A DNA stretch of 34,600 bases, taken from positions 1-34,600 of the IMG/VR virus record IMGVR_UViG_3300027128_000012, one strand, 5' to 3'. Of the stretch, positions 9,108 through 34,081 are shown in pieces (the first letter of the stretch is position 1; each line of letters opens with the position of its first letter). Source of the DNA: a virus. Its lineage: Duplodnaviria; Caudoviricetes. The position numbers and the translations under genes were made by a program. Under the pieces are notes generated by a model. That model did not search any database, was not told the DNA's origin, and saw nothing but the letters and a program-made list of their open reading frames with translations.

Positions 9108-9785
9108 TTAGTTATTTTTCAATTGCAATAATTTTTCCCTAATGTAATCAGTATATTCCTTGTCCATTTCCATACACACAAATGGTCGATATTTTAAATA
9201 CCAATCTTTATATGCTGTCCATGTCAAAGTGTTCAACTTCATACATGTATATTTAGTTAGCGACGTTGAAATATCAACCATTGCTAACGTTTCATAAGAA
9301 ATAATTCCCTTATGAGCCAAATGGTAAATTGGTGGTATTCCTACTCCACCATTTGCATTTGTTGTTTTTAGTATATCTATTGTATACGATTCGTAAAGTT
9401 TTGTCAAGTCTTTTTCTAAAAAATATTTCGGAGAAGACAAAAAAGATTTTAATTTAGAATATGCCTGTTGGACATCTTCCTGATCGGGGGAACTTTCCCA
9501 ACTCCCATTAGGTTTGTTATAAAAGAAATGTGCGCCCAATGCCATTTTTACATTGACATCAGTAGTAAATCTCTTTGCCCATTTGTCAAACAATTTAACT
9601 TCCCATGTTGAAACTGTTTGATATTTGTCCCAATTGTATATTTTCTTCGATGAAAAATTATACTTTTCAAGGCGATAGCTGTCCGTCATATAATGTAAAC
9701 GAACAGATTGATATAACTTCCATGTATCAAAATCATTTATGTATTTTGGATTTTCACAAGGATAAACCAATGACTTTATATTCAT
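9108..9785 (-). CDS. gp59: T4-like helicase loader
   Basis: LYQSVRLHY...EKYN N-terminus, ISYETL and KYRPF C-terminal motifs; lies between gp33 and gp32. Confidence 0.85.
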   Translation of the reverse strand: MNIKSLVYPCENPKYINDFDTWKLYQSVRLHYMTDSYRLEKYNFSSKKIYNWDKYQTVSTWEVKLFDKWAKRFTTDVNVKMALGAHFFYNKPNGSWESSPDQEDVQQAYSKLKSFLSSPKYFLEKDLTKLYESYTIDILKTTNANGGVGIPPIYHLAHKGIISYETLAMVDISTSLTKYTCMKLNTLTWTAYKDWYLKYRPFVCMEMDKEYTDYIREKLLQLKNN

Positions 9786-9788
9786 AAT

Positions 9789-10028
9789 TTAGAATGGTAA
9801 CGTAGCAATATTCTCAGTTTTTATACGCTTTAGATTAACAGATTCGGAACGCAAACGTTCCAATAAAACAGGACTTAGATAAGGAGCAATTTCCGTTTCC
9901 TCCAAATCATATTCTTGACAATACTCAACCACAGCTTCCAGCCATGTATCGCAATGCTTGTAAAGTTCTTCAACCTTATGTTGAAGACTAGACATTATTT
10001 CTTCTTTTGAAAAACCTAATTTAACCAT
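9789..10028 (-). CDS. gp33: T4-like late transcription coactivator
   Basis: WLEAVVEYCQEYDLEETEIAPYLSPVLLERLRSE...LPF; synteny. Confidence 0.9.
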   Translation of the reverse strand: MVKLGFSKEEIMSSLQHKVEELYKHCDTWLEAVVEYCQEYDLEETEIAPYLSPVLLERLRSESVNLKRIKTENIATLPF

Positions 10029-11484: not shown

Positions 11485-12690
11485 TTAACTACCCCACACC
11501 ATATCCTGTACTTTCATGATCAAATTACTTGCCAATTCAATGTTAGGTCGCTTAGGCAGCTTCGTCTCATGGTAAAGTTTATTACGAATCAGATCGTCTT
11601 GTTCCTCACCGTAAGCAATTAATTGCTCATAAGACCACGAACCACGGCGGATTTCAAGTAATTCCTTTGCATCCGGACGCTTCACCAATACTTCACCATG
11701 CTCAAGGATTTCACGGCCCATACGCAACAAGCGAACCAGATGCATACCATGCTTGAAATCAGTGCCAGTAGCTTGAAAGTCAAGATGTCGCTTACACAAA
11801 TGTAGCAATTCAGAAAGATTCGCTTCATTCATGGTCTTTACCAGTTCGGCCATGTTTTCGCTCCCAACAACATGGTCAACATCATAGCTTTCAGAAACCA
11901 CTTCACGAACAACAGAGGCACGTTCAGCTAGTTCAAGCTCAATCAAACGATAAAGATCAACCTTCTTATCCTTCAATGTCTTCCAAGCCCAATATTGGTT
12001 CCATGTTTCAAGATTTTGCTTGTACTCGGAAATGTTAAACTTGACAATCATCAACGGCAACTTTCGCTCACCATCAGCAGTGGTATGATCGAAGGAATTA
12101 TCAGTCACATTCAGATGAAAACCATCATTGTATGTCTTAGCACCAGCGTCCTTGTACAGACCGTAAATGTTTCCACCATAATGAACCAAACGATAACCAT
12201 CATGGTATTCTTCAAGATCAATCTTGAAAACCTTTTCGTTGGTGTAGTTGACGACCAACGAAACATAGTCAATCTGACGAGGTGGGGTTGTTGGTTGCGG
12301 GTTATTCTGCCACTTGGACTGATTCTTCATTTGCTTTAATTGACTAACTGCATAACCAGAAAAGGTGAATGCAGCCCTCGAAGACATCAAATCACGGCGA
12401 TGTTTGCGAAGCAACTGATAGGCTGGGGAATCCAAGATAACATCATTTTCCTCAATCCACAAGAGTTCGACAATGTTTGGATTACATTCCGTATACAATT
12501 GCATGAACTTCGACAGTTCATAACTAACACTATCCTTTTGATCAGGATGACGGTACTCATTCTGTTTAAAAAATGGAGTGCGGATAAACTTGGGGTCAGC
12601 CACGAAAATGCCACGATAATCTTCATCAGACGTTGGTGTATTTGTGCCATAGCTGATACTACCAGCACGACCCAAGTAGATTTCTTTCAT
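11485..12690 (-). CDS. Pol-beta superfamily nucleotidyltransferase (RlaP/YcgL-like)
   Basis: GSISYGTNTPTSDEDYRGIF, NPNIVELL, FSGYA, KHGMHLVRLL, LLEIRRG. Confidence 0.88.
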   Translation of the reverse strand: MKEIYLGRAGSISYGTNTPTSDEDYRGIFVADPKFIRTPFFKQNEYRHPDQKDSVSYELSKFMQLYTECNPNIVELLWIEENDVILDSPAYQLLRKHRRDLMSSRAAFTFSGYAVSQLKQMKNQSKWQNNPQPTTPPRQIDYVSLVVNYTNEKVFKIDLEEYHDGYRLVHYGGNIYGLYKDAGAKTYNDGFHLNVTDNSFDHTTADGERKLPLMIVKFNISEYKQNLETWNQYWAWKTLKDKKVDLYRLIELELAERASVVREVVSESYDVDHVVGSENMAELVKTMNEANLSELLHLCKRHLDFQATGTDFKHGMHLVRLLRMGREILEHGEVLVKRPDAKELLEIRRGSWSYEQLIAYGEEQDDLIRNKLYHETKLPKRPNIELASNLIMKVQDMVWGS

Positions 12691-20057: not shown

Positions 20058-20192
20058 TGAATGGATTTTTTATCGTTGCTCTACCAATTGAGCTACACCC
20101 CCAATAAAGCTAAACTTCAATTGGCGGGGGTGGATAGGACTCGAACCTACAACACACGGCTTTGGATGCTTTAAAATTGCTGTTACCATTCA
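20058..20192 (-). ncRNA. ACAGCAA-scaffold element 1: circularly permuted tRNA-Trp(CCA)-like
   Basis: TGAATGG-TAACAGCAA ... AT CCA AA GCCGT..T arm..CACCCCC G CCA, 19-nt spacer, GGGGGTG TA GCTC..GAGC A ACG ... CCATTCA. Confidence 0.85.
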
Positions 20193-20196
20193 AACC

Positions 20197-20805
20197 TTAC
20201 TGTGTTGACAAACGCAACACAGTTTTATACAAACCCGGATTGATCTTCAATGCCTCTGGTACGATAACATTGCGACAAAATGACCTTTGATTAGAAGAAT
20301 CATGGTTTGTCGGGTCTTCAATCCAAATCAATTCATGTTTCTTTGCATATGCATAAACTTCACCCTTTGTCAAATGAAGAAAAGGACGACGCAAATTGTT
20401 ACGATGTGATGAAATAAATCTTACATTCCCCTTAATAGAGGACATAAGATATTCTTCGACCTGATCATCTAACGTATGTGCAAGGTAAACATCACAAGCA
20501 TACGCACGATAAATCTTTTGGCGAAAATTGCGCCAGTTATGTTCTACATTACTTTCATACGCAACATCAATATGATGTACGTCGATTTCAATGCCATACT
20601 CTTTAGCAATATCACGAACCAATTGCTCACAATCATCGTCATACGGATTTCCCGGATTATGATTAATGTGAACTACCCGAACGTTATTATAACCAACCAT
20701 AAAATGTAACAAAGCAACAGAATCTACGCCACCAGAACAAGCAACCACACAAGTTTGGTCGGTAAAAGGTTTAATCACTTTGGTACGAATGTTAGCCATT
20801 ATCAC
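20197..20805 (-). CDS. tilS: tRNA(Ile)-lysidine synthetase, catalytic domain only
   Basis: ACSGGVDS PP-loop, VHINH, AHTLDDQVE, RPFL, WIEDPTN; lacks the C-terminal domains of enterobacterial TilS. Confidence 0.9.
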   Translation of the reverse strand: MIMANIRTKVIKPFTDQTCVVACSGGVDSVALLHFMVGYNNVRVVHINHNPGNPYDDDCEQLVRDIAKEYGIEIDVHHIDVAYESNVEHNWRNFRQKIYRAYACDVYLAHTLDDQVEEYLMSSIKGNVRFISSHRNNLRRPFLHLTKGEVYAYAKKHELIWIEDPTNHDSSNQRSFCRNVIVPEALKINPGLYKTVLRLSTQ

Positions 20806-24324: not shown

Positions 24325-24375
24325 GTTAATTTCCTCTGTGGTTGATAAATCAAACACTTACACATTGGAAATCGG

Positions 24376-24474
24376 TGCTACCTGCCTGACTCGAACAGGC
24401 CACCTGCGGGTTATCATTACTGAAACCTTGTCTCAGAAACTAAGCCGCTGCTCTACCAGATGAGCTAAGGTAGC
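24376..24474 (-). tRNA. tRNA with 26-nt insertion in anticodon loop (intron-like or pseudo-tRNA); identity Thr(AGT) or Ile(GAT) unresolved
   Basis: Perfect GCTACCT/AGGTAGC acceptor, D and T arms; 33 nt between anticodon stem strands; ends ACCG. Confidence 0.8.
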
Positions 24475-24584
24475 ATTTCTAGAGTTATCGTACCTAGATC
24501 GGACATCACCCACGGGATATTAAGAGTATGACTCTCTTCTTATCATGCATATCCTGCACTATGCGGTATGATGGCCGCAAGTAT

Positions 24585-24902
24585 TCAATCTTTATATAGT
24601 ACAATAAAATCATCAGTCATGCAACAATACGATGATTTCATTAATGGTTCTTTTGTAACAAAATCCACAAATGTTTCTGTATTATATGGATTATAATAAG
24701 CCTTTTTCAAGAAACCTGCAATTGGCTGGTTTTCTATTATATATCCTTTAACATACGCATGCACATTTTTAGTCTTTGTTAATAATACCTTTTCACGACC
24801 TTTTGCGTTAACAACATATGAAACATTTCTTAAAAACAAAGGTTCATAAGAATGTGCTACCACCAAACCATTTTGGCGTATCGACCAACATTTCTTAGTC
24901 AA
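24585..24902 (-). CDS. Conserved hypothetical phage protein
   Basis: WSIRQ, KNVHAYVKG, YNPY; frame stays open upstream through PVQVYRNL, so the true start is uncertain. Confidence 0.7.
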   Translation of the reverse strand: MTKKCWSIRQNGLVVAHSYEPLFLRNVSYVVNAKGREKVLLTKTKNVHAYVKGYIIENQPIAGFLKKAYYNPYNTETFVDFVTKEPLMKSSYCCMTDDFIVLYKD

Positions 24903-24933
24903 ATTACGATAAACTTGTACTGGTTTAGTTTTA

Positions 24934-25176
24934 TCAAAAGGATAACGTATTCGAATTTTTAATACCTTCTTTGATTTTAGTCATAATGGCATCACCAAAT
25001 ATTTCCATTATATTGATGCCATCAATTTTTGCATCTTGTGCAAGTTCAACATTGAAAGCACCATTAATTACAAAATTTATTACTGGTGTAAATGTTTCGT
25101 TATCAATACTTTTATATAAGTTTACATGAATATTTTCGTTTAGATAATTTTCTAATTTTTGTTTTATATCACTCAT
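24934..25176 (-). CDS. Small hypothetical protein (paralog of next gene)
   Basis: MSDIKQKLENYLNENI...IDNETFTP. Confidence 0.7.
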   Translation of the reverse strand: MSDIKQKLENYLNENIHVNLYKSIDNETFTPVINFVINGAFNVELAQDAKIDGINIMEIFGDAIMTKIKEGIKNSNTLSF

Positions 25177-25191
25177 TTACTATTATCACTT

Positions 25192-25434
25192 TTAATTATT
25201 TAAAGTAGCATTGGACAATTTATCTAAAATTGTCTTCCCAACAATTTCTTTACCATTTGCGGAAATTACAGTTAAATCTTGTAATATTTCAATATTAAGT
25301 TTACATGATATATCAAAATGCAAAGTTGGTATAAAAATATCATCATCAATCTTTCGTTCAACTTTAACTATTTTTATATTTTCATTCAAATACTCTTCGA
25401 TTTGTGCTGTTAATTGTTGTTTTAAATCGCTCAT
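25192..25434 (-). CDS. Small hypothetical protein (paralog of previous gene)
   Basis: MSDLKQQL...EYLNENI...IDDDIFIP. Confidence 0.7.
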   Translation of the reverse strand: MSDLKQQLTAQIEEYLNENIKIVKVERKIDDDIFIPTLHFDISCKLNIEILQDLTVISANGKEIVGKTILDKLSNATLNN

Positions 25435-25442
25435 TTTTATTC

Positions 25443-25871
25443 TCAATCTTTACCTAGTGTATAATCATGTGGTACAATGTCATCACGATTTGGAAAAGAA
25501 TCTTCTTCAATTCGTGGTTCTGTATTACGAATAAATTCAGACAACTTATAGTAAAGCCATTGTGGGAAATAACCATCTTCATCACGATTATATCCAACTT
25601 CAATTGCGGCCTTTACTAGTTCATAACCATTATAAGCATTCAAATATAATGAGTTTTCAAAATCTTCTGGCAAAATGTATAGCTTTTCATTTTGTTCGGC
25701 TGTCATTTTCGGTGTTGTTTCCCACACAAAAGTAGGATCATTGCACTGAATCATACCCCAATCACCAACCTTCATAATATCACCGTCACGGCGGGCACGA
25801 ATTAGATACCAACCCGGCAATACTTCACCAAAATACAAAGGGTTGACCAAACATTGCTCACACATTAGCAT
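25443..25871 (-). CDS. Hypothetical protein
   Basis: 142-aa ORF beginning MCEQC. Confidence 0.7.
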   Translation of the reverse strand: MLMCEQCLVNPLYFGEVLPGWYLIRARRDGDIMKVGDWGMIQCNDPTFVWETTPKMTAEQNEKLYILPEDFENSLYLNAYNGYELVKAAIEVGYNRDEDGYFPQWLYYKLSEFIRNTEPRIEEDSFPNRDDIVPHDYTLGKD

Positions 25872-25901
25872 TCTCTTTATGTAGGATATGTATATTTTAA
25901 A

Positions 25902-25977
25902 TGGTGAGTCCGGTGGGTTACGATCCCACTACCTACTGGTTAAAAGCCAGTTGCTCTGCCGATTGAGCTACGAACCC
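25902..25977 (-). tRNA. tRNA-Lys(TTT)
   Basis: GGGTTCG..ACTGG CT TTT AA CCAGT..ACCA; atypical T loop ATCGTAA. Confidence 0.9.
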
Positions 25978-26001
25978 ATATGCCGTAAAAACGGCAGCAA
26001 C

Positions 26002-26107
26002 AGGAAAAATTGTTCCCTTTACCAAGTTGGGAACATATCAAAAACGTTGCCGAAGCTAGTTTCCGATTGGAGTCGAACCAATAATATTGATTTGCTGTTA
26101 TTTTCCT
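26002..26107 (-). ncRNA. ACAGCAA-scaffold element 2: permuted tRNA elbow with no anticodon arm
   Basis: AGGAAAA-TAACAGCAA ... ATTGG TTCGACT CCAAT, CGGAAAC/GTTTTTG closed by GC-TTCG-GC, GTTCCC-AACTTGGTAAA-GGGAAC ... TTTTCCT. Confidence 0.8.
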
Positions 26108-26116
26108 AAAATCAAC

Positions 26117-26255
26117 TGGATGGAATTTTCTATACGCTGCTCTACCTGATTGAGCTACACCCCCAATGAAACATTACAACAATCGGTGGGGGCGACAGGA
26201 TTTGAACCTGTAACCAACGGCTTATCATGCTAGAAATGGTTGCTGTGACCATCCA
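26117..26255 (-). ncRNA. ACAGCAA-scaffold element 3: circularly permuted tRNA-Ile(GAT)-like
   Basis: TGGATGG-TCACAGCAA ... AT GAT AA GCCGT..ACAGG TTCAAAT CCTGT CGCCCCC ACCG, spacer, GGGGGTG TA GCTC..GAGC A GCG ... CCATCCA. Confidence 0.85.
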
Positions 26256-26278
26256 AAACCTTAAAAATCTTATAACAC

Positions 26279-26394
26279 TGGATAGAGTTTATCTTGTTCT
26301 ACCGATTAAACTATACGCCTTACGACGCAGCCGGACTCGAACCGACACCTTTGGCTTTTACAGAGCTACGATATTTTTTTGCTGTTACTATCCA
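26279..26394 (-). ncRNA. ACAGCAA-scaffold element 4: permuted tRNA-Tyr(GTA)-like with acceptor stem capped by GNRA loop
   Basis: TGGATAG-TAACAGCAA ... GCT CT GTA AA AGC..GTCGG TTCGAGT CCGGC TGCGTC-GTAA-GGCGTA TA GTTT AATCGGTA GAAC ... CTATCCA. Confidence 0.85.
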
Positions 26395-26725: not shown

Positions 26726-26781
26726 AGGTTGTATTTTTTCTTTTTTTGAAAATAAAAAATTAAAATTGCTGTCAACAACCT
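26726..26781 (-). ncRNA. ACAGCAA-scaffold element 5: minimal form, loop triplet TTC (Glu-like)
   Basis: AGGTTGT-TGACAGCAA-TTTTAATTTTTTA TT TTC AA AAAAAG..-ACAACCT. Confidence 0.75.
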
Positions 26782-27166: not shown

Positions 27167-27220
27167 AGGTTGTATTTTTCTTTTTTCCAAATAAAAAATT
27201 AAAATTGCTGTTAACAACCT
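27167..27220 (-). ncRNA. ACAGCAA-scaffold element 6: minimal form, loop triplet TGG (Pro-like)
   Basis: AGGTTGT-TAACAGCAA-TTTTAATTTTTTA TT TGG AA AAAAG..-ACAACCT; near-identical to element 5 except for the triplet. Confidence 0.75.
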
Positions 27221-27559: not shown

Positions 27560-27766
27560 TCGGTAGGCACGACACTAGCTTGCACCCAATCAGTCCACCA
27601 GCACTAAACTGTGCCTTTCTCTAGCACCCCACCATAAAGGAGGGAATGAGGACTAACGGTTTCTACACATTATCGTATTGTATGGGATTAGCCGCATCCA
27701 CAACGTCTGTGAACTTAGTACGCATAAGTCACAACTTTTAACACCACTACTGGCTTCCAATGGTGT
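27560..27766 (-). ncRNA. Candidate structured non-coding RNA
   Basis: GC-richer stretch with no ORF-track entry and several hairpins, starting at the 3' end of tRNA(CAT). Confidence 0.4.
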
Positions 27767-28320: not shown

Positions 28321-28494
28321 GTAGTTAGCTGGTTCCTAACTTTTCACTACTTGTTCTTTACGAACTGGCCGTGAAAGGCGCTACCCAGACCACATCTGGA
28401 TTTAACGAGCGGGGTGGCTTTTGCACACTCGCTTTAAAGTTTTTAGCCAATCTTACGATTGTTTCCATCTAGTGCCTCGTGGCGGCAAACTTTA
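28321..28494 (-). ncRNA. Candidate structured non-coding RNA
   Basis: GC-richer spacer with multiple short helices including CAATC-GTAA-GATTG and CCAGA-TGTGG-TCTGG. Confidence 0.4.
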
Positions 28495-28502
28495 TACTAG
28501 AC

Positions 28503-29277: not shown

Positions 29278-29337
29278 AGGAAACATTTTACGTTTTTCAT
29301 TAAAAGTGAAATGTATAAATTTTGCTGTTAGTTTCCT
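29278..29337 (-). ncRNA. ACAGCAA-scaffold element 7: isolated Lys(TTT) anticodon stem-loop
   Basis: AGGAAAC-TAACAGCAA ... TTTCA CT TTT AA TGAAA ... GTTTCCT. Confidence 0.85.
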
Positions 29338-29837: not shown

Positions 29838-29866
29838 ATTCTACACATAGTTTTAGCTGTTGTCAA
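29838..29866 (-). promoter_or_regulatory. sigma70 promoter (distal) of tRNA operon
   Basis: TTGACA-17 nt-TAGAAT; shares AAGTGCTTGACA with the proximal promoter. Confidence 0.8.
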
Positions 29867-29910
29867 GCACTTGTTGTAAATATTATATATTTTTTCACAT
29901 GGTAATAAAA

Positions 29911-30633
29911 ATGAAGAGTTACAGTGAGTTCTTAAACGAAAGTTTTAATATATTCAAGAAACATGATAAAATAGTTCCAACTAATAAAGCAGAAGAACAT
30001 CTGGATTTTGACTATAGTCATCACAATGAACATTTAAAACCGTTTGACGAAGAACATTTTCATCAACATGCACCATCTATAAATGGTAATTTACAGAAAA
30101 AAGCATTAGATGCATATAAGCATGATTCATACAACATGAATGGTTCATTATGGGGCGGTAAAAATGCAGTTCATAATGACGACCATCATATTGAACATGT
30201 TTCGGCTTTATTAAAATCAACACCGGCAGCAAAAAAAGACTTTCATGTTTATACTGGCGTCAAAGCTGATAGTGAAAGGCTTAAAGGTGATTTGCATATT
30301 CCGGCATTCACTTCTGCATCTGCGGATCATAGAATAGCTGGTTTGTTTTCATCAGGAAAAACAGTAGAAAAAATGAAAACAGAAAGCGGAAACGAGAAAG
30401 ATGTTAATGTAAGACATGTTATTAAAATACATGTTAAAAAAGGACAACAAGTTGGTGGTTATGTTGGTGATATTGGCCAGCGACAACATGAAAGAGAGTT
30501 TTTAATAAACAAGGGACACACATTACATTTTACAGGAAAAATTGAAGATCATGTTGAACAAGACAGCACATTTGGCGGAACTCCAAAAATAGTAAGAGTA
30601 CACCACGCAACCATAACACCGGATGATGAATAA
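29911..30633 (+). CDS. ADP-ribosyltransferase 1 (VIP2/Alt-Mod-like R-S-E clade)
   Basis: MKSYSEFLNE start; YKHDSYNMNGSL, FHVYTG, AFTSAS, HEREFLI; TAAATA at 29877-29882. Confidence 0.85.
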   Translation: MKSYSEFLNESFNIFKKHDKIVPTNKAEEHLDFDYSHHNEHLKPFDEEHFHQHAPSINGNLQKKALDAYKHDSYNMNGSLWGGKNAVHNDDHHIEHVSALLKSTPAAKKDFHVYTGVKADSERLKGDLHIPAFTSASADHRIAGLFSSGKTVEKMKTESGNEKDVNVRHVIKIHVKKGQQVGGYVGDIGQRQHEREFLINKGHTLHFTGKIEDHVEQDSTFGGTPKIVRVHHATITPDDE

Positions 30634-31310
30634 TGAGTAAATTTAGAGCTTTAATTGAAGGAAAAATAAAACCTGAAAAACATATAAGTTTTTTAGATAT
30701 AAGTGATGACAGAAAACGTGAAGATGATTTAATAGCATCTCATTTACCAAATGTTTCTAATACATCACATAGCAACGCCATCAGATCATATAGTGCTAGT
30801 TCTAAAGGTCTAAACCGTTATCTATGGGAAAACAAACACGATGCAAATCACAAGAATAGTTCATTAGACGACGACGCAAAAACTCTTTCAGATATTCTAA
30901 AAACAGCACCCGCTGCCAAAGAGGATTTCCATGTTTACACTGGAATAAACTCAAAAAGAAATAAAATTGAAAAAGGGGACTTACACATTCCGGCTTTCAC
31001 CTCAACATCAACAAAAGATTTTGTGGCAGGTGACTTTGGAGTAAAATATCACTCTTTAGAAGACCACCCAAACAAGAATGGTGATATACAACCGCATATG
31101 ATTCATCATATATTAAAGATACATGTCAAAAAAGGACAACAGGTTGGTGCGTATATTGCACCCCATAGTAACTATAGCGACGAACATGAGTTCTTAATAA
31201 ATAAAAATCACACGATACATGTTTCCGATGATTATGAAGACCATCCGGGAGAGGGCAATAGAATTTTCAGAATACACCATGCAACAATATCAATGGGGAA
31301 CGATAAATGA
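30633..31310 (+). CDS. ADP-ribosyltransferase 2
   Basis: YSASSKGLNRYL, FHVYTG, AFTSTS, DEHEFLI. Confidence 0.85.
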   Translation: MSKFRALIEGKIKPEKHISFLDISDDRKREDDLIASHLPNVSNTSHSNAIRSYSASSKGLNRYLWENKHDANHKNSSLDDDAKTLSDILKTAPAAKEDFHVYTGINSKRNKIEKGDLHIPAFTSTSTKDFVAGDFGVKYHSLEDHPNKNGDIQPHMIHHILKIHVKKGQQVGAYIAPHSNYSDEHEFLINKNHTIHVSDDYEDHPGEGNRIFRIHHATISMGNDK

Positions 31311-32020
31311 AAACTTTTAAAGAACATTTAAACATGATATATTCTTTAAATGAGCAAGTGGTAAATCCACCTATAAAATTTGATCACAATGACAATGAAG
31401 ACCCTGATAAAGAGCTTTTCTTCATACATCATGCGCCTGAAACAAAAGACAATAATCAAATCGACGCTATTAAAAGTTATTGCGACCACTCAACAAGTAT
31501 GAACAAATCTTTATGGAAGAAAAAGTTTGACTTCATAGAAGATGAAAAAAATGCGTCATTACTAACAGATGCCCTTAAAACAGCACCTGCCGCAAAAGAA
31601 GATTTTCATGTTTATACAGGGGTGAATGCGAATAGGAATGAAATTAAAAAAGGAGATTTACATATTCCAGCCTTTACATCAGCGTCATACTCCCCAATAA
31701 TAGCAGGAAGATTCGTCAGACCTATTGAAAATAGGCACACGGAAGAGTACCATCCGGATGAAGATGGAAATATGGTTAAACATACTGTCCATCATATATT
31801 AAAGATACACGTGAAAAAAGGACAACAGGTTGGTGCGTATATCGCCGATCATTCTTTTGCACCACACGAAAAAGAGTTTTTGATTAATAAAGGGCATACC
31901 ATACATATTAGCGGGGATTATGAAGACCATCATAATCCACCAGAAGAAAATGGGTATAGTAGAACAAGAAGAATATATAGAATACACCATGCAACCATAA
32001 CACCGGATGATGATAAATGA
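31307..32020 (+). CDS. ADP-ribosyltransferase 3
   Basis: MKTFKEHLN; FHVYTG, AFTSAS, HEKEFLI. Confidence 0.85.
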   Translation: MKTFKEHLNMIYSLNEQVVNPPIKFDHNDNEDPDKELFFIHHAPETKDNNQIDAIKSYCDHSTSMNKSLWKKKFDFIEDEKNASLLTDALKTAPAAKEDFHVYTGVNANRNEIKKGDLHIPAFTSASYSPIIAGRFVRPIENRHTEEYHPDEDGNMVKHTVHHILKIHVKKGQQVGAYIADHSFAPHEKEFLINKGHTIHISGDYEDHHNPPEENGYSRTRRIYRIHHATITPDDDK

Positions 32021-32676
32021 ATTTTCTAAACTATTTTATTAATTTATTAGAACAATATAATTTTGACGGTGAAGTAATAGAAAACGAACATCCAGATTCA
32101 TTTTTCAGCGAACATCAACCATCGCATGAAAGCACAAAAGATGATGATAGCCTTTATTATTACACCGAAGACTCCAAAACAATTAATAGAAATTTATGGA
32201 AAGGTGAAAAACATGATATGCATGATAAAATAAGCAACGTTCTAAAATCAGGAAGGCCAGCAAAAAAAGATTTTCATGTATTCACTGGTGTAAACGCTAA
32301 TAAAAATGAATTAAAAGGAAATCTTCACATACCTGCTTTTACTAGCACGTCTACAAGAGTATCAGAAGCTGCTGACTTTACACCTGTGAAGGGTAGCAGA
32401 CATACTACAGAAAAACACGTTAATGATGGTGTTGAAAAAGAATATAACATACACCACATAATAAAAATACATGTGAAAAAAGGACAACAAGTTGGTGCAT
32501 ACATATCAGATTTTTCACAGTTCCCTAAAGAAAGAGAGTTCCTTATTAATAAAGGACACACATTGCACCTTTCTGGTGAACATGAAGACCACCATATGCC
32601 ACCATACAGAGAAGGGCTAAATCCACGAATATATAGAATACACCACGCAACAATAACTATGGATGATGAAAAATGA
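32017..32676 (+). CDS. ADP-ribosyltransferase 4
   Basis: YTEDSKTINRNL, FHVFTG, AFTSTS, KEREFLI. Confidence 0.85.
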   Translation: MNFLNYFINLLEQYNFDGEVIENEHPDSFFSEHQPSHESTKDDDSLYYYTEDSKTINRNLWKGEKHDMHDKISNVLKSGRPAKKDFHVFTGVNANKNELKGNLHIPAFTSTSTRVSEAADFTPVKGSRHTTEKHVNDGVEKEYNIHHIIKIHVKKGQQVGAYISDFSQFPKEREFLINKGHTLHLSGEHEDHHMPPYREGLNPRIYRIHHATITMDDEK

Positions 32677-32843
32677 AAAGCTATAATGATTTCTTAAATG
32701 AAAGCAAGTCTAAAGAAAAGCCAAAAGACGAATATATCGAATTGGGGATTGGAGATAGGGAAAGGGAAGTTAAAGAACCCAAAGAACCGAAAGAAAACAA
32801 AGATGAATATATCGAGTTGGGTATAGGTGACAGAAAACGCTAA
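32673..32843 (+). CDS. 56-aa peptide with duplicated KDEYIELGIGDR motif (not in ORF track)
   Basis: ATGA overlap with ART4; MKSYNDFLNESKSKEKPKDEYIELGIGDREREVKEPKEPKENKDEYIELGIGDRKR*. Confidence 0.8.
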   Translation: MKSYNDFLNESKSKEKPKDEYIELGIGDREREVKEPKEPKENKDEYIELGIGDRKR

Positions 32844-32844
32844 C

Positions 32845-33177
32845 TTAGTTAGCGTCTGTTGTCCAATTTGTTAATTCAAATGTAACATGGAAAAATATTA
32901 CATTATCTTTTGGATCACGTTCACATTTAACAGAAAATCCACCAGAAGAATTAAAACCTTTATTAGTATCACCAAATATAACTGCTTCATATGCTTCTCT
33001 CATAGACTTTCTAACATATTGGCGCATGTCTGGAATAGTAGGAACTCCACTGACAGAAAACCATTGCCAATCTAGAAAATCCATGACTTTTTGGACTTTC
33101 TCAAAATCAAACCAGTCCATGACTTCATCCATTCTTTCTTGAAGATAATCTGTTTGTTCTTGTGTTAATTTTTTCAT
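32845..33177 (-). CDS. Conserved hypothetical phage protein
   Basis: FDFEKVQKVMDFLDWQW...VPTI...SSGGF. Confidence 0.75.
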   Translation of the reverse strand: MKKLTQEQTDYLQERMDEVMDWFDFEKVQKVMDFLDWQWFSVSGVPTIPDMRQYVRKSMREAYEAVIFGDTNKGFNSSGGFSVKCERDPKDNVIFFHVTFELTNWTTDAN

Positions 33178-33229: not shown

Positions 33230-34081
33230 TTATAAAGTACCCACAGGCTTCTTATCGAGAGTTTCCTTTCCAATAAAAGTGCCATAACGACGATCTGGCT
33301 CAACAAATGCTAGTATATGAGTGTCGCCATTAGCCTTGGCTTGCGCTATACGGTGGTTTCCACCATAAACCGTATACTTATCTTCATCTGCATCGTATTT
33401 CACCTCTATAGGCTGTTTAACAGGCTTCCCGTAGTGATATTTTCCATCATCGCTTTCATTATTTGTTGGTGTTGGTTCTAAACCATCTAATTTGTGCATG
33501 GGAACATAACGTTCATATGCAGATGATAAATGACCATCAGCACCACGCTCTAACATACTTTTTTGAGAATACGCATAACTACGAAGTTTCTTTTGTTCTT
33601 CCGCTGATTCCATCAATCCAGTCATTTTTATACTTTCAGGATCAAATGCAATCAAAGAAGTACCCCTACCCTCATGCGTATTAGAATAAGAAACACCATC
33701 ATAACCCTTATCAATCAAACGCTGACGGATTTCTTGATTATATTGTTTACGGTGTTTATATGCCTCATTATGAGTATACTTATCATGCTCATCTTTAGAA
33801 ATCAATTTCTTTTTCAATAATTGATCAGCTATATTATCCGCATGAAAAGAACCAACATCAGTAAGTCTCAATGGATTATAAACCTTTATACGTGCTTTAT
33901 AGATATGGCCTTCACCACTCAATCTATTTTTAAGGACATGTTGTGCTTGATCCTTAGAACCAAAATGTGCGCCCAAATCACCCAATGTTGTGTCAAATTT
34001 ATCAAAATGCTTATTGGTAGCATGATACCAAGTTTTTCCTTCCTGATAATATTCAATCAATAAATCTTTAAAAGTGGCCAT
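33230..34081 (-). CDS. Fusion of ART-PolyVal-like ADP-ribosyltransferase domain and ParB/Srx-like domain
   Basis: WYHAT..FDKF..GAHFG..NPL..GYDGV..AFDPESIK; then PIEV..YTVYGGNHRIAQAK; N-terminus MATFKDLLIE. Confidence 0.75.
   Translation of the reverse strand: MATFKDLLIEYYQEGKTWYHATNKHFDKFDTTLGDLGAHFGSKDQAQHVLKNRLSGEGHIYKARIKVYNPLRLTDVGSFHADNIADQLLKKKLISKDEHDKYTHNEAYKHRKQYNQEIRQRLIDKGYDGVSYSNTHEGRGTSLIAFDPESIKMTGLMESAEEQKKLRSYAYSQKSMLERGADGHLSSAYERYVPMHKLDGLEPTPTNNESDDGKYHYGKPVKQPIEVKYDADEDKYTVYGGNHRIAQAKANGDTHILAFVEPDRRYGTFIGKETLDKKPVGTL

Follow-up and report, generated by a model that had tools for sequence, protein, structure and literature searches.

The element at 26279..26394 of the window (the whole stretch of DNA analysed, a 34.6-kb contig of a T4-like phage) is a real and ordinary member of a widespread, apparently undescribed family of RNA elements carrying a stem-closed ACAGCAA motif, here called the handle. 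It lies on the minus strand, from 26394 to 26279 (116 nt), and bears a permuted tRNA-Tyr-like body. The reading that we put forward, and to which we give an even chance, is that of a sealed Tyr mimic on an ACAGCAA handle, bound by a Ro60-fold DUF2828 protein and serving as bait for host tRNA-cutting defences. An RNA of about 116 nt would be excised from a longer tRNA-cluster transcript and kept as a stable RNA. Its handle would bind the phage DUF2828 Ro60-fold ring, and the complex would display an unchargeable tRNA-Tyr shape to the host enzymes that cut tRNA. Comparison supports the pairing of the proposed cloverleaf, a break at 28/29 of the tRNA, the linkage to the partner gene and the predicted Ro60 fold. 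The element is one member, and the interest sits in the family.

Parts of the Tyr element and support for its fold

Genes of the window include gp32, TelA and TerC; the closest relative found for gp32 was at most 48% identical. The sequencing runs containing the window are labelled riverine metagenome. ARAGORN called 16 tRNAs on its minus strand, no tmRNA in the window and no tRNA at 26279..26394. Three tRNA-CAU genes are present in the window. Promoter and terminator scans stayed at chance level and gave nothing within 26279..26394, and blastn of the element region against cultured phages matched tRNA parts only. The element is composed as follows.

26279..26394, minus: whole handle RNA with permuted tRNA-Tyr-like body; 73.6 bits with a held-out covariance model, 27.8 bits with Rfam YrlA (below threshold)
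26388..26394, minus: outer stem, 5' strand, 7 bp; pair probability 0.54-1.0; all 7 pairs with two-sided changes in relatives
26379..26385, minus: ACAGCAA handle motif, putative protein-binding site; recurs in 7 stem-closed elements of the window
26354..26366, minus: distal anticodon arm GCU-CUGUAAA-AGC, loop CUGUAAA, GUA at 26361-26359
26347..26353, minus: tRNA positions 42-43 and a 5-nt variable region
26330..26346, minus: T arm
26314..26329, minus: acceptor hairpin UGCGUC-GUAA-GGCGUA, 6 bp with two G-U pairs, GUAA loop at 26323-26320, no CCA
26293..26313, minus: U8-A9, D arm (26311-26296) and positions 26-28
26279..26285, minus: outer stem, 3' strand

One A-rich linker separates ACAGCAA from the anticodon arm and another separates the D arm from the 3' outer stem. 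An earlier note on this DNA had given the order as anticodon loop, T arm, TGCGTC-GTAA-GGCGTA and D arm, and this order was confirmed, on the minus strand. Its parts and its sealed acceptor stand, but it had overlooked the YrlA-like topology and the Ro60-fold partner.

Energy folding backed the outer stem, the acceptor (pair probabilities 0.54-0.93) and the T arm (about 0.68), and left the anticodon arm (0.12) and the D arm (0.01) unsupported. The tRNA-like fold came to -22.7 kcal/mol, less stable than the minimum-energy fold at -26.0; the folding energy gave z = -1.73 with 16 of 200 shuffles as stable, and the cloverleaf was not recovered by energy alone. The predicted cloverleaf rests on conservation and comparison, not on energy. 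With a covariance model made from 25 relatives, picked by hand and including no window sequence, the element scored 73.6 bits (E 7e-14). In the alignment of these 25 members, 97.2% of cells pair and two-sided changes occur at 22 of 28 pairs; the D stem was imposed by the search pattern and so does not vary. Rfam matched YrlA (RF02553) at 27.8 bits, below the gathering score of 69, and gave no tmRNA match on 26279..26394. The order pattern, which was derived from these same elements, matched three times in the window and never in 300 shuffles.

Such an order might also arise as the remnant of two tandem tRNA genes, with the 3' half of one before the 5' half of the next, or by chance. Tandem tRNA junctions do imitate it, reaching up to 62 bits with the covariance model, which was therefore not used for family counts. 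Against a tandem remnant, none of the 64 members having an anticodon arm overlaps an ARAGORN tRNA, and the acceptor strands pair and co-vary at 7 of 7 pairs in the 25-member alignment, which largely refutes it. The outer stem and motif enclosing the element, and the absence of matches in the 300 shuffles, count against remnant and chance alike, and we give them almost no credence.

The point at which the handle enters the tRNA was located within the family. The two bases after position 26, in the 3' segment, pair with positions 42-43 of the 5' segment in 43 of 64 members, with 8 different combinations. The same test on 2000 shuffles averaged 9.2 and never exceeded 19, and contiguous bases gave 9 (kinship being uncontrolled). 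Thus, the handle appears to branch at 28/29 of a nearly complete tRNA. At the junction of the Tyr element only G28-C42 pairs, and we infer its 28/29 break from the family.

The handle family, its acceptor ends and its anticodons

All seven stem-closed ACAGCAA elements of the window are on its minus strand. Besides the Tyr element, they are the following.

26117..26255, minus: permuted sibling, Ile(GAU)-like arm; the 7-bp acceptor has a long loop and ACCG; 81.0 bits with the covariance model, YrlA 42 bits in Rfam
20058..20192, minus: permuted sibling, Trp(CCA)-like arm read by eye, 7-bp acceptor then GCCA and a long loop; 81.9 bits with the covariance model
29278..29337, minus: short sibling, handle and a hairpin with a Lys(UUU)-like anticodon (loop by eye)
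27167..27220, minus: short sibling, A/U-rich hairpin with UGG-centred loop (by eye) and weak stem
26726..26781, minus: short sibling, near copy of 27167-27220, UUC-centred loop (by eye) and weak stem
26002..26107, minus: degenerate sibling; handle, T-loop and additional hairpins by sequence inspection

The hairpin loop centre (UGG or UUC) is the main difference between 27167-27220 and 26726-26781, as if the anticodon alone had been swapped. Two siblings in the window match Rfam YrlA at 42 and 33.4 bits, below 69. Two intergenic stretches of about 170-200 nt each on the minus strand, 27560-27760 and 28330-28500, have no tRNA or Rfam call and look like further small RNAs.

Pattern scans of viral contigs and of partner-gene loci yielded 483 different stem-closed elements, a part of which are due to chance, given the background of the finder. 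Permuted, partial and short classes were distinguished, and anticodon-like hairpins are 4-5 times above shuffles. Among the non-redundant permuted elements, 96 were parsed, and in 64 of these an anticodon arm stands at tRNA distance from the T arm. An initial, loose pattern scan gave 119 loci, of which 24 were retained by eye; two loci, L271 and L272, are probable false pattern matches inside a tRNA-like gene. Over the handle elements of the window and 17 loci, Rfam returned tRNA and sub-threshold YrlA (at best 49.2 bits among the relatives at the 17 loci) and otherwise weak tmRNA and other matches. Felixounavirus AYO145A carries a permuted element (L339:10422-10547) and a short one (9749-9815), both unannotated, in the tRNA cluster just after its Ro-like gene; at least 80% of the length of the permuted one recurs in 246 records of cultured phages. 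In bacterial contigs of Pseudoflavonifractor and relatives (L203, L205, L206, L208, L211, L212), DUF2828 genes are flanked by handle elements too. The literature searched contained no description of the family; the phage tables of PMC4201824 may be relevant to its novelty.

The same RNA circle also occurs opened at the acceptor, in normal tRNA order, often ending in ACCA and with the handle stem bearing a short loop. This form is seen in L022 (Tyr), L136 (Ile), L553, L650, L566 and the 'pseudo-tRNAs' of KVP40; a normal-order scan yielded 4 true elements among 120 loci. In KVP40 (L340:498-744, 2295-2410), three annotated pseudo-tRNAs are normal-order tRNAs with an inserted handle, about 10-11 kb upstream of the DUF2828 gene. 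In the window, the 101-nt 'tRNA-Gln(CUG)' called by ARAGORN at 24374-24474 (minus) contains an inserted stem capped by a loop, together with a variant of the motif, and may be a normal-order handle member and not a Gln tRNA.

The earlier note had claimed that the element cannot be charged as encoded, and this was borne out. From the T arm to U8 there are only 16 nt, taken up by 6 bp and a 4-nt loop. A 1-72 pair is missing (A and G oppose each other), as are a discriminator, a CCA and a leader. Its further claim that some scaffold elements are mimics rather than precursors also held: in a set of 101 non-redundant permuted members, shaped by the scan pattern used to gather it, at most 19 nt separate the T arm from U8 in 43, and NCCA is encoded in 12. 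Stable tetraloops recur. Among 39 four-base loops, 9 are GNRA and 5 UUCG (14 of 39), about 2 being expected at even base use. Sealed acceptor ends are thus common in the handle family, and a minority may be opened.

A working tRNA-Tyr could nevertheless be made if the element were a permuted precursor, with the handle excised, 28 and 29 ligated, the acceptor loop opened and CCA added. Red-algal permuted tRNAs are processed from such precursors. Every tRNA position save the acceptor end is present, and neither the 16 tRNAs of the window nor the 19 of L663, a contig taken as the same phage (see below), include one for Tyr, Ile(GAU) or Trp, in a genome seen in part. Among the relatives encoding NCCA, L327 has the matching Asp discriminator, and the normal-order, ACCA-ended versions include one for Tyr (L022). 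However, a permuted precursor needs a 7-bp acceptor, a discriminator and a removable spacer, and the 16 nt of the element hold 6 bp and GUAA. The recurrent tetraloops, and short members with no tRNA body at all, also speak against this alternative, which we regard as highly improbable. Available passages of PMC4201824 and 10.1101/312249 report that RNase P cuts the 7-bp acceptor of M. smegmatis YrlA, which gains CCA, and leaves the 6-bp acceptor of Salmonella YrlA uncut. The acceptor of the element resembles the latter, whereas those of the siblings at 26117-26255 and 20058-20192 resemble the former. Recutting of the element's acceptor very probably does not occur.

RNA libraries make up 11 of the 24 runs listed for the window. 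Contigs crossing the GUAA loop unbroken, with at least 31 nt on each side, were obtained from three of the five RNA runs examined (X13, X14, X17); of the other two, one had no contig on the element and one ended 21 nt past the loop. These contigs are assemblies, giving no ends, strand or level, and may include DNA or precursor. Neither a ligated 28/29 joint nor a CCA-ended product appears in the contigs of the five runs, a weak argument against a precursor as contigs drop rare forms. One contig of X14 (depth 5.7) joins 24584 to 26279, the exact predicted 3' end of the element; the joint was seen neither in two other RNA runs nor in the DNA run, and could reflect a chimera formed in the library at a genuine RNA end. 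The stretch 30501-32848 has no contig in three RNA runs and is covered in the DNA run; missing cover proves nothing.

Anticodons of the family look varied and tRNA-like. Among 58 members not selected for Tyr, Thr(UGU) and Lys(UUU), with 7 each, and Ile(GAU), with 6, are the most frequent. GUA occurs once, in the 26279..26394 element itself; Tyr is not a favoured anticodon. Short members have Lys(UUU) in 14 of 56 cases, and A at position 34 is rare in both long (5 of 64) and short (2 of 56) elements. The Tyr loop is found in 13 other elements, several near-identical and most with short variable regions; these were mostly gathered with a pattern requiring that loop.

The DUF2828/DUF7788 gene beside the handle RNAs

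At four Tyr-selected loci, a gene with DUF2828/DUF7788 adjoins the handle RNAs. The association was assayed from both sides. Starting from the protein, same-strand elements were found at 68 of 80 viral DUF2828 loci (4 of them seed contigs), against 13 for the opposite strand and 13 for shuffles, which ignore kinship. Genome loci behaved alike (13 of 16 same-strand, 3 opposite strand, 3 shuffled). With the proteins clustered at 60% identity, elements accompanied 21 of 26 clusters against 6, within about 1 kb in 19 of the 26, and 5 of the 26 had none. Starting from the RNA, 50 loci were chosen (49 of 80 listed, long contigs being favoured, and L044) and 46 analysed. DUF7788 was present in 35 of these 46 contigs and in 19 of 24 near-complete ones, against 2 of 50 controls (43 tRNA-bearing and 7 gp32-bearing; 1 of 18 near-complete), the control contigs being smaller than the RNA-selected ones. 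No handle element was found in the 7-10 kb examined in the two DUF7788-positive controls. Among the 11 RNA-selected contigs without DUF7788, two have TROVE, one has a partial DUF2828 match and eight have neither, L271 and L272 being among the eight. Overall, DUF2828/DUF7788 was matched in 711 of 50,697 phage records.

Within the window itself, none of 44 ORFs scanned is a Ro-like gene. L663, from a 91-kb metagenome contig, is 99.9% identical to the window over 11.4 kb and was taken as the same phage. It carries a DUF2828/DUF7788 gene (L663:4586-6088, 501 aa) on the same strand as the element, 3.4 kb past the window end and 11.6 kb upstream of the element. Two further handles stand 0.4-0.5 kb before this gene. 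Four tRNA-Glu genes are clustered just downstream of it (L663:7153-8992). Around and between the RNA cluster and the Ro-like gene, the window has these genes.

11485-12690 and 20197-20805, minus: RlaP-family nucleotidyltransferase and PP-loop protein (which we take to be TilS-like), flanking the RNA cluster
29860-32676, plus: a tandem array of four ADP-ribosyltransferase-like paralogues, located between the tRNA cluster and the Ro-like gene
33230-34081, minus: one ART-PolyVal gene, between the tRNA cluster and the Ro-like gene

The L663 gene has no match to PF05731 (TROVE), and a sequence profile of three DUF2828 proteins found no solved relative; only fold comparison gave one. The predicted model of the protein (pLDDT 89.5) matched Ro60 in all 12 matches listed down to rank 13, with TM up to 0.66; the top fold match was 9kop (phiLo Ro60), and identity to solved Ro60s was 11-17%. 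The model of a second DUF2828 family member also matches Ro60. The L663 protein is thus predicted to have a Ro60-like fold.

Possible roles of the complex and comparison with known systems

Protein binding at the handle is very probable in our estimate, and a bait role, once binding is granted, is fairly probable. Bait is favoured because a fixed handle is combined with varied anticodons, because some members consist of an anticodon hairpin only, and because a protein probably of this family counters a defence in coliphage Bas63. The available passages of 10.1101/2024.10.10.617714 describe Bas63 gp130 as a Ro60-like protein that counters the Ppl defence and is encoded directly upstream of tRNA genes. 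In Felixounavirus, the DUF2828 gene is likewise directly upstream of tRNA genes, with the permuted element 1 kb downstream, and from this synteny we infer that gp130 is a DUF2828 protein. The same passages also contain the authors' guess that some of the tRNA genes are Y RNAs, and their proposal that Ppl degrades DNA, not tRNA, which counts against the bait reading. The distance of 11.6 kb between the L663 gene and the element, beyond the 4 kb typical of YrlA, is a further point against it.

The main rival to bait is the role of a classical Y RNA, which we consider rather unlikely here. The RNA would serve as a tether between the Ro60-fold protein and either PNPase or RNA-repair enzymes, as in a RYPER-like complex; the tRNA body would recruit partners or stabilise, and the anticodon loop would be a docking surface or a relic. 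The permutation and the closed 6-bp acceptor are the same as in Salmonella YrlA (excerpts of 10.1101/312249), phiLo Ro60 binds two Y-like RNAs and host PNPase (passages of PMC12135203), and jumbo-phage TROVE proteins have been placed with RNA repair (passages of PMC7824862). The RlaP-family nucleotidyltransferase and the PP-loop protein encoded in the window also fit a tether. However, a tether would need neither the many anticodons nor the short members made of an anticodon hairpin only, position 34 avoids A, and YrlA functions without an anticodon loop (10.1101/312249, in part).

The element might instead act on translation, competing for TyrRS, modifying enzymes, ribosomes or uncharged-tRNA sensors and so steering the host to phage protein synthesis. 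The full elbow and the anticodon loop are present, but the acceptor end and A73 are missing. Bacterial tRNA-Tyr has a long variable region and that of the element is short. A ring protein held at 28/29 would probably block entry into the ribosome. In the available part of PMC13148394, a phage 'Ro-like RNA-binding protein' is toxic to M. smegmatis when overexpressed; an effect on translation nevertheless seems improbable to us.

Returning to bait, a wider version of it can be offered only tentatively. Many large phages may carry a modular anti-immunity kit that combines a single Ro60-fold ring with a library of handle RNAs; these would each bear a different anticodon arm or tRNA body, with the circle opened at the handle or at the acceptor, and the Tyr bait would be the one found here. 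If so, the anticodon set of a phage would record the tRNA-cutting defences that it has met. A candidate RNA partner becomes available for DUF2828/DUF7788, and a reading can be offered for unexplained 'pseudo-tRNAs', for example in KVP40. The role of the tRNA-like module of Y RNAs, and the use of non-coding tRNA baits by phages, become testable in coliphage.

The closest known system is YrlA (RF02553), which, in the available passages of PMC4201824 and 10.1101/312249, shares with the element an outer stem with a conserved 5' motif and the order of T arm, closed acceptor hairpin and D arm. Several RNAs per locus and a Ro60-fold gene on the same strand are also common to YrlA and the handle family. 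The motifs differ: YrlA has GNCGAAN0-1G (PMC4201824, in part), found in none of 64 handle members including the Tyr element, which has ACAGCAA. The element displays a 7-nt anticodon loop, CUGUAAA, at tRNA distance from the T arm, whereas the excerpts of 10.1101/312249 describe YrlA as having no anticodon loop. The partner is DUF2828/DUF7788 for the handle family and PF05731 TROVE for YrlA. According to the passages of PMC4201824, YrlA typically lies within 4 kb of a TROVE/Ro60 gene; here the gene on the same strand is more distant, but two sibling handles are within 0.5 kb of it. Unlike YrlA, the handle family also includes normal tRNA order with CCA and anticodon-only hairpins. The same passages give broad features of Y RNAs as a long 5'-3' stem, an internal loop of large size and a length of 80-130 nt; the element has all of these, with 116 nt and a 7-bp outer stem, and L663:4586-6088 would supply the Ro60-fold protein in the same genome. 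Altogether, the element is Y-RNA-like by topology and by the predicted fold of its partner, and outside YrlA by score, motif, anticodon loop and partner family.

The Thermus phage phiLo also combines a phage Ro60 ring with several small RNAs, Yrl1 and Yrl2. These carry the CGAA motif, and the passages available from PMC12135203 do not describe anticodon display. Bas63 gp130 resembles the Felixounavirus DUF2828 protein in standing directly before a tRNA stretch, and the available passages of 10.1101/2024.10.10.617714 name no RNA partner for it.

One sibling element gave a tmRNA_permuted match in Rfam. Red algae and archaea have permuted tRNA genes in which, as in two-piece tmRNA, the 3' half precedes the 5' half, and all of these are processed to free CCA ends; the Tyr element, in contrast, has neither room for a CCA end nor a tag reading frame. 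Phage tRNAs are reportedly set against the PARIS defence. The available passages of PMC13096335 describe phage tRNAs that neutralise the tRNA-cutting defences Septu and retron-Eco7. The likeness lies in a tRNA-shaped phage RNA, among which Tyr and Lys anticodons occur. Those are full tRNAs, whereas the element is unchargeable and could thus act as bait only, not as a replacement.
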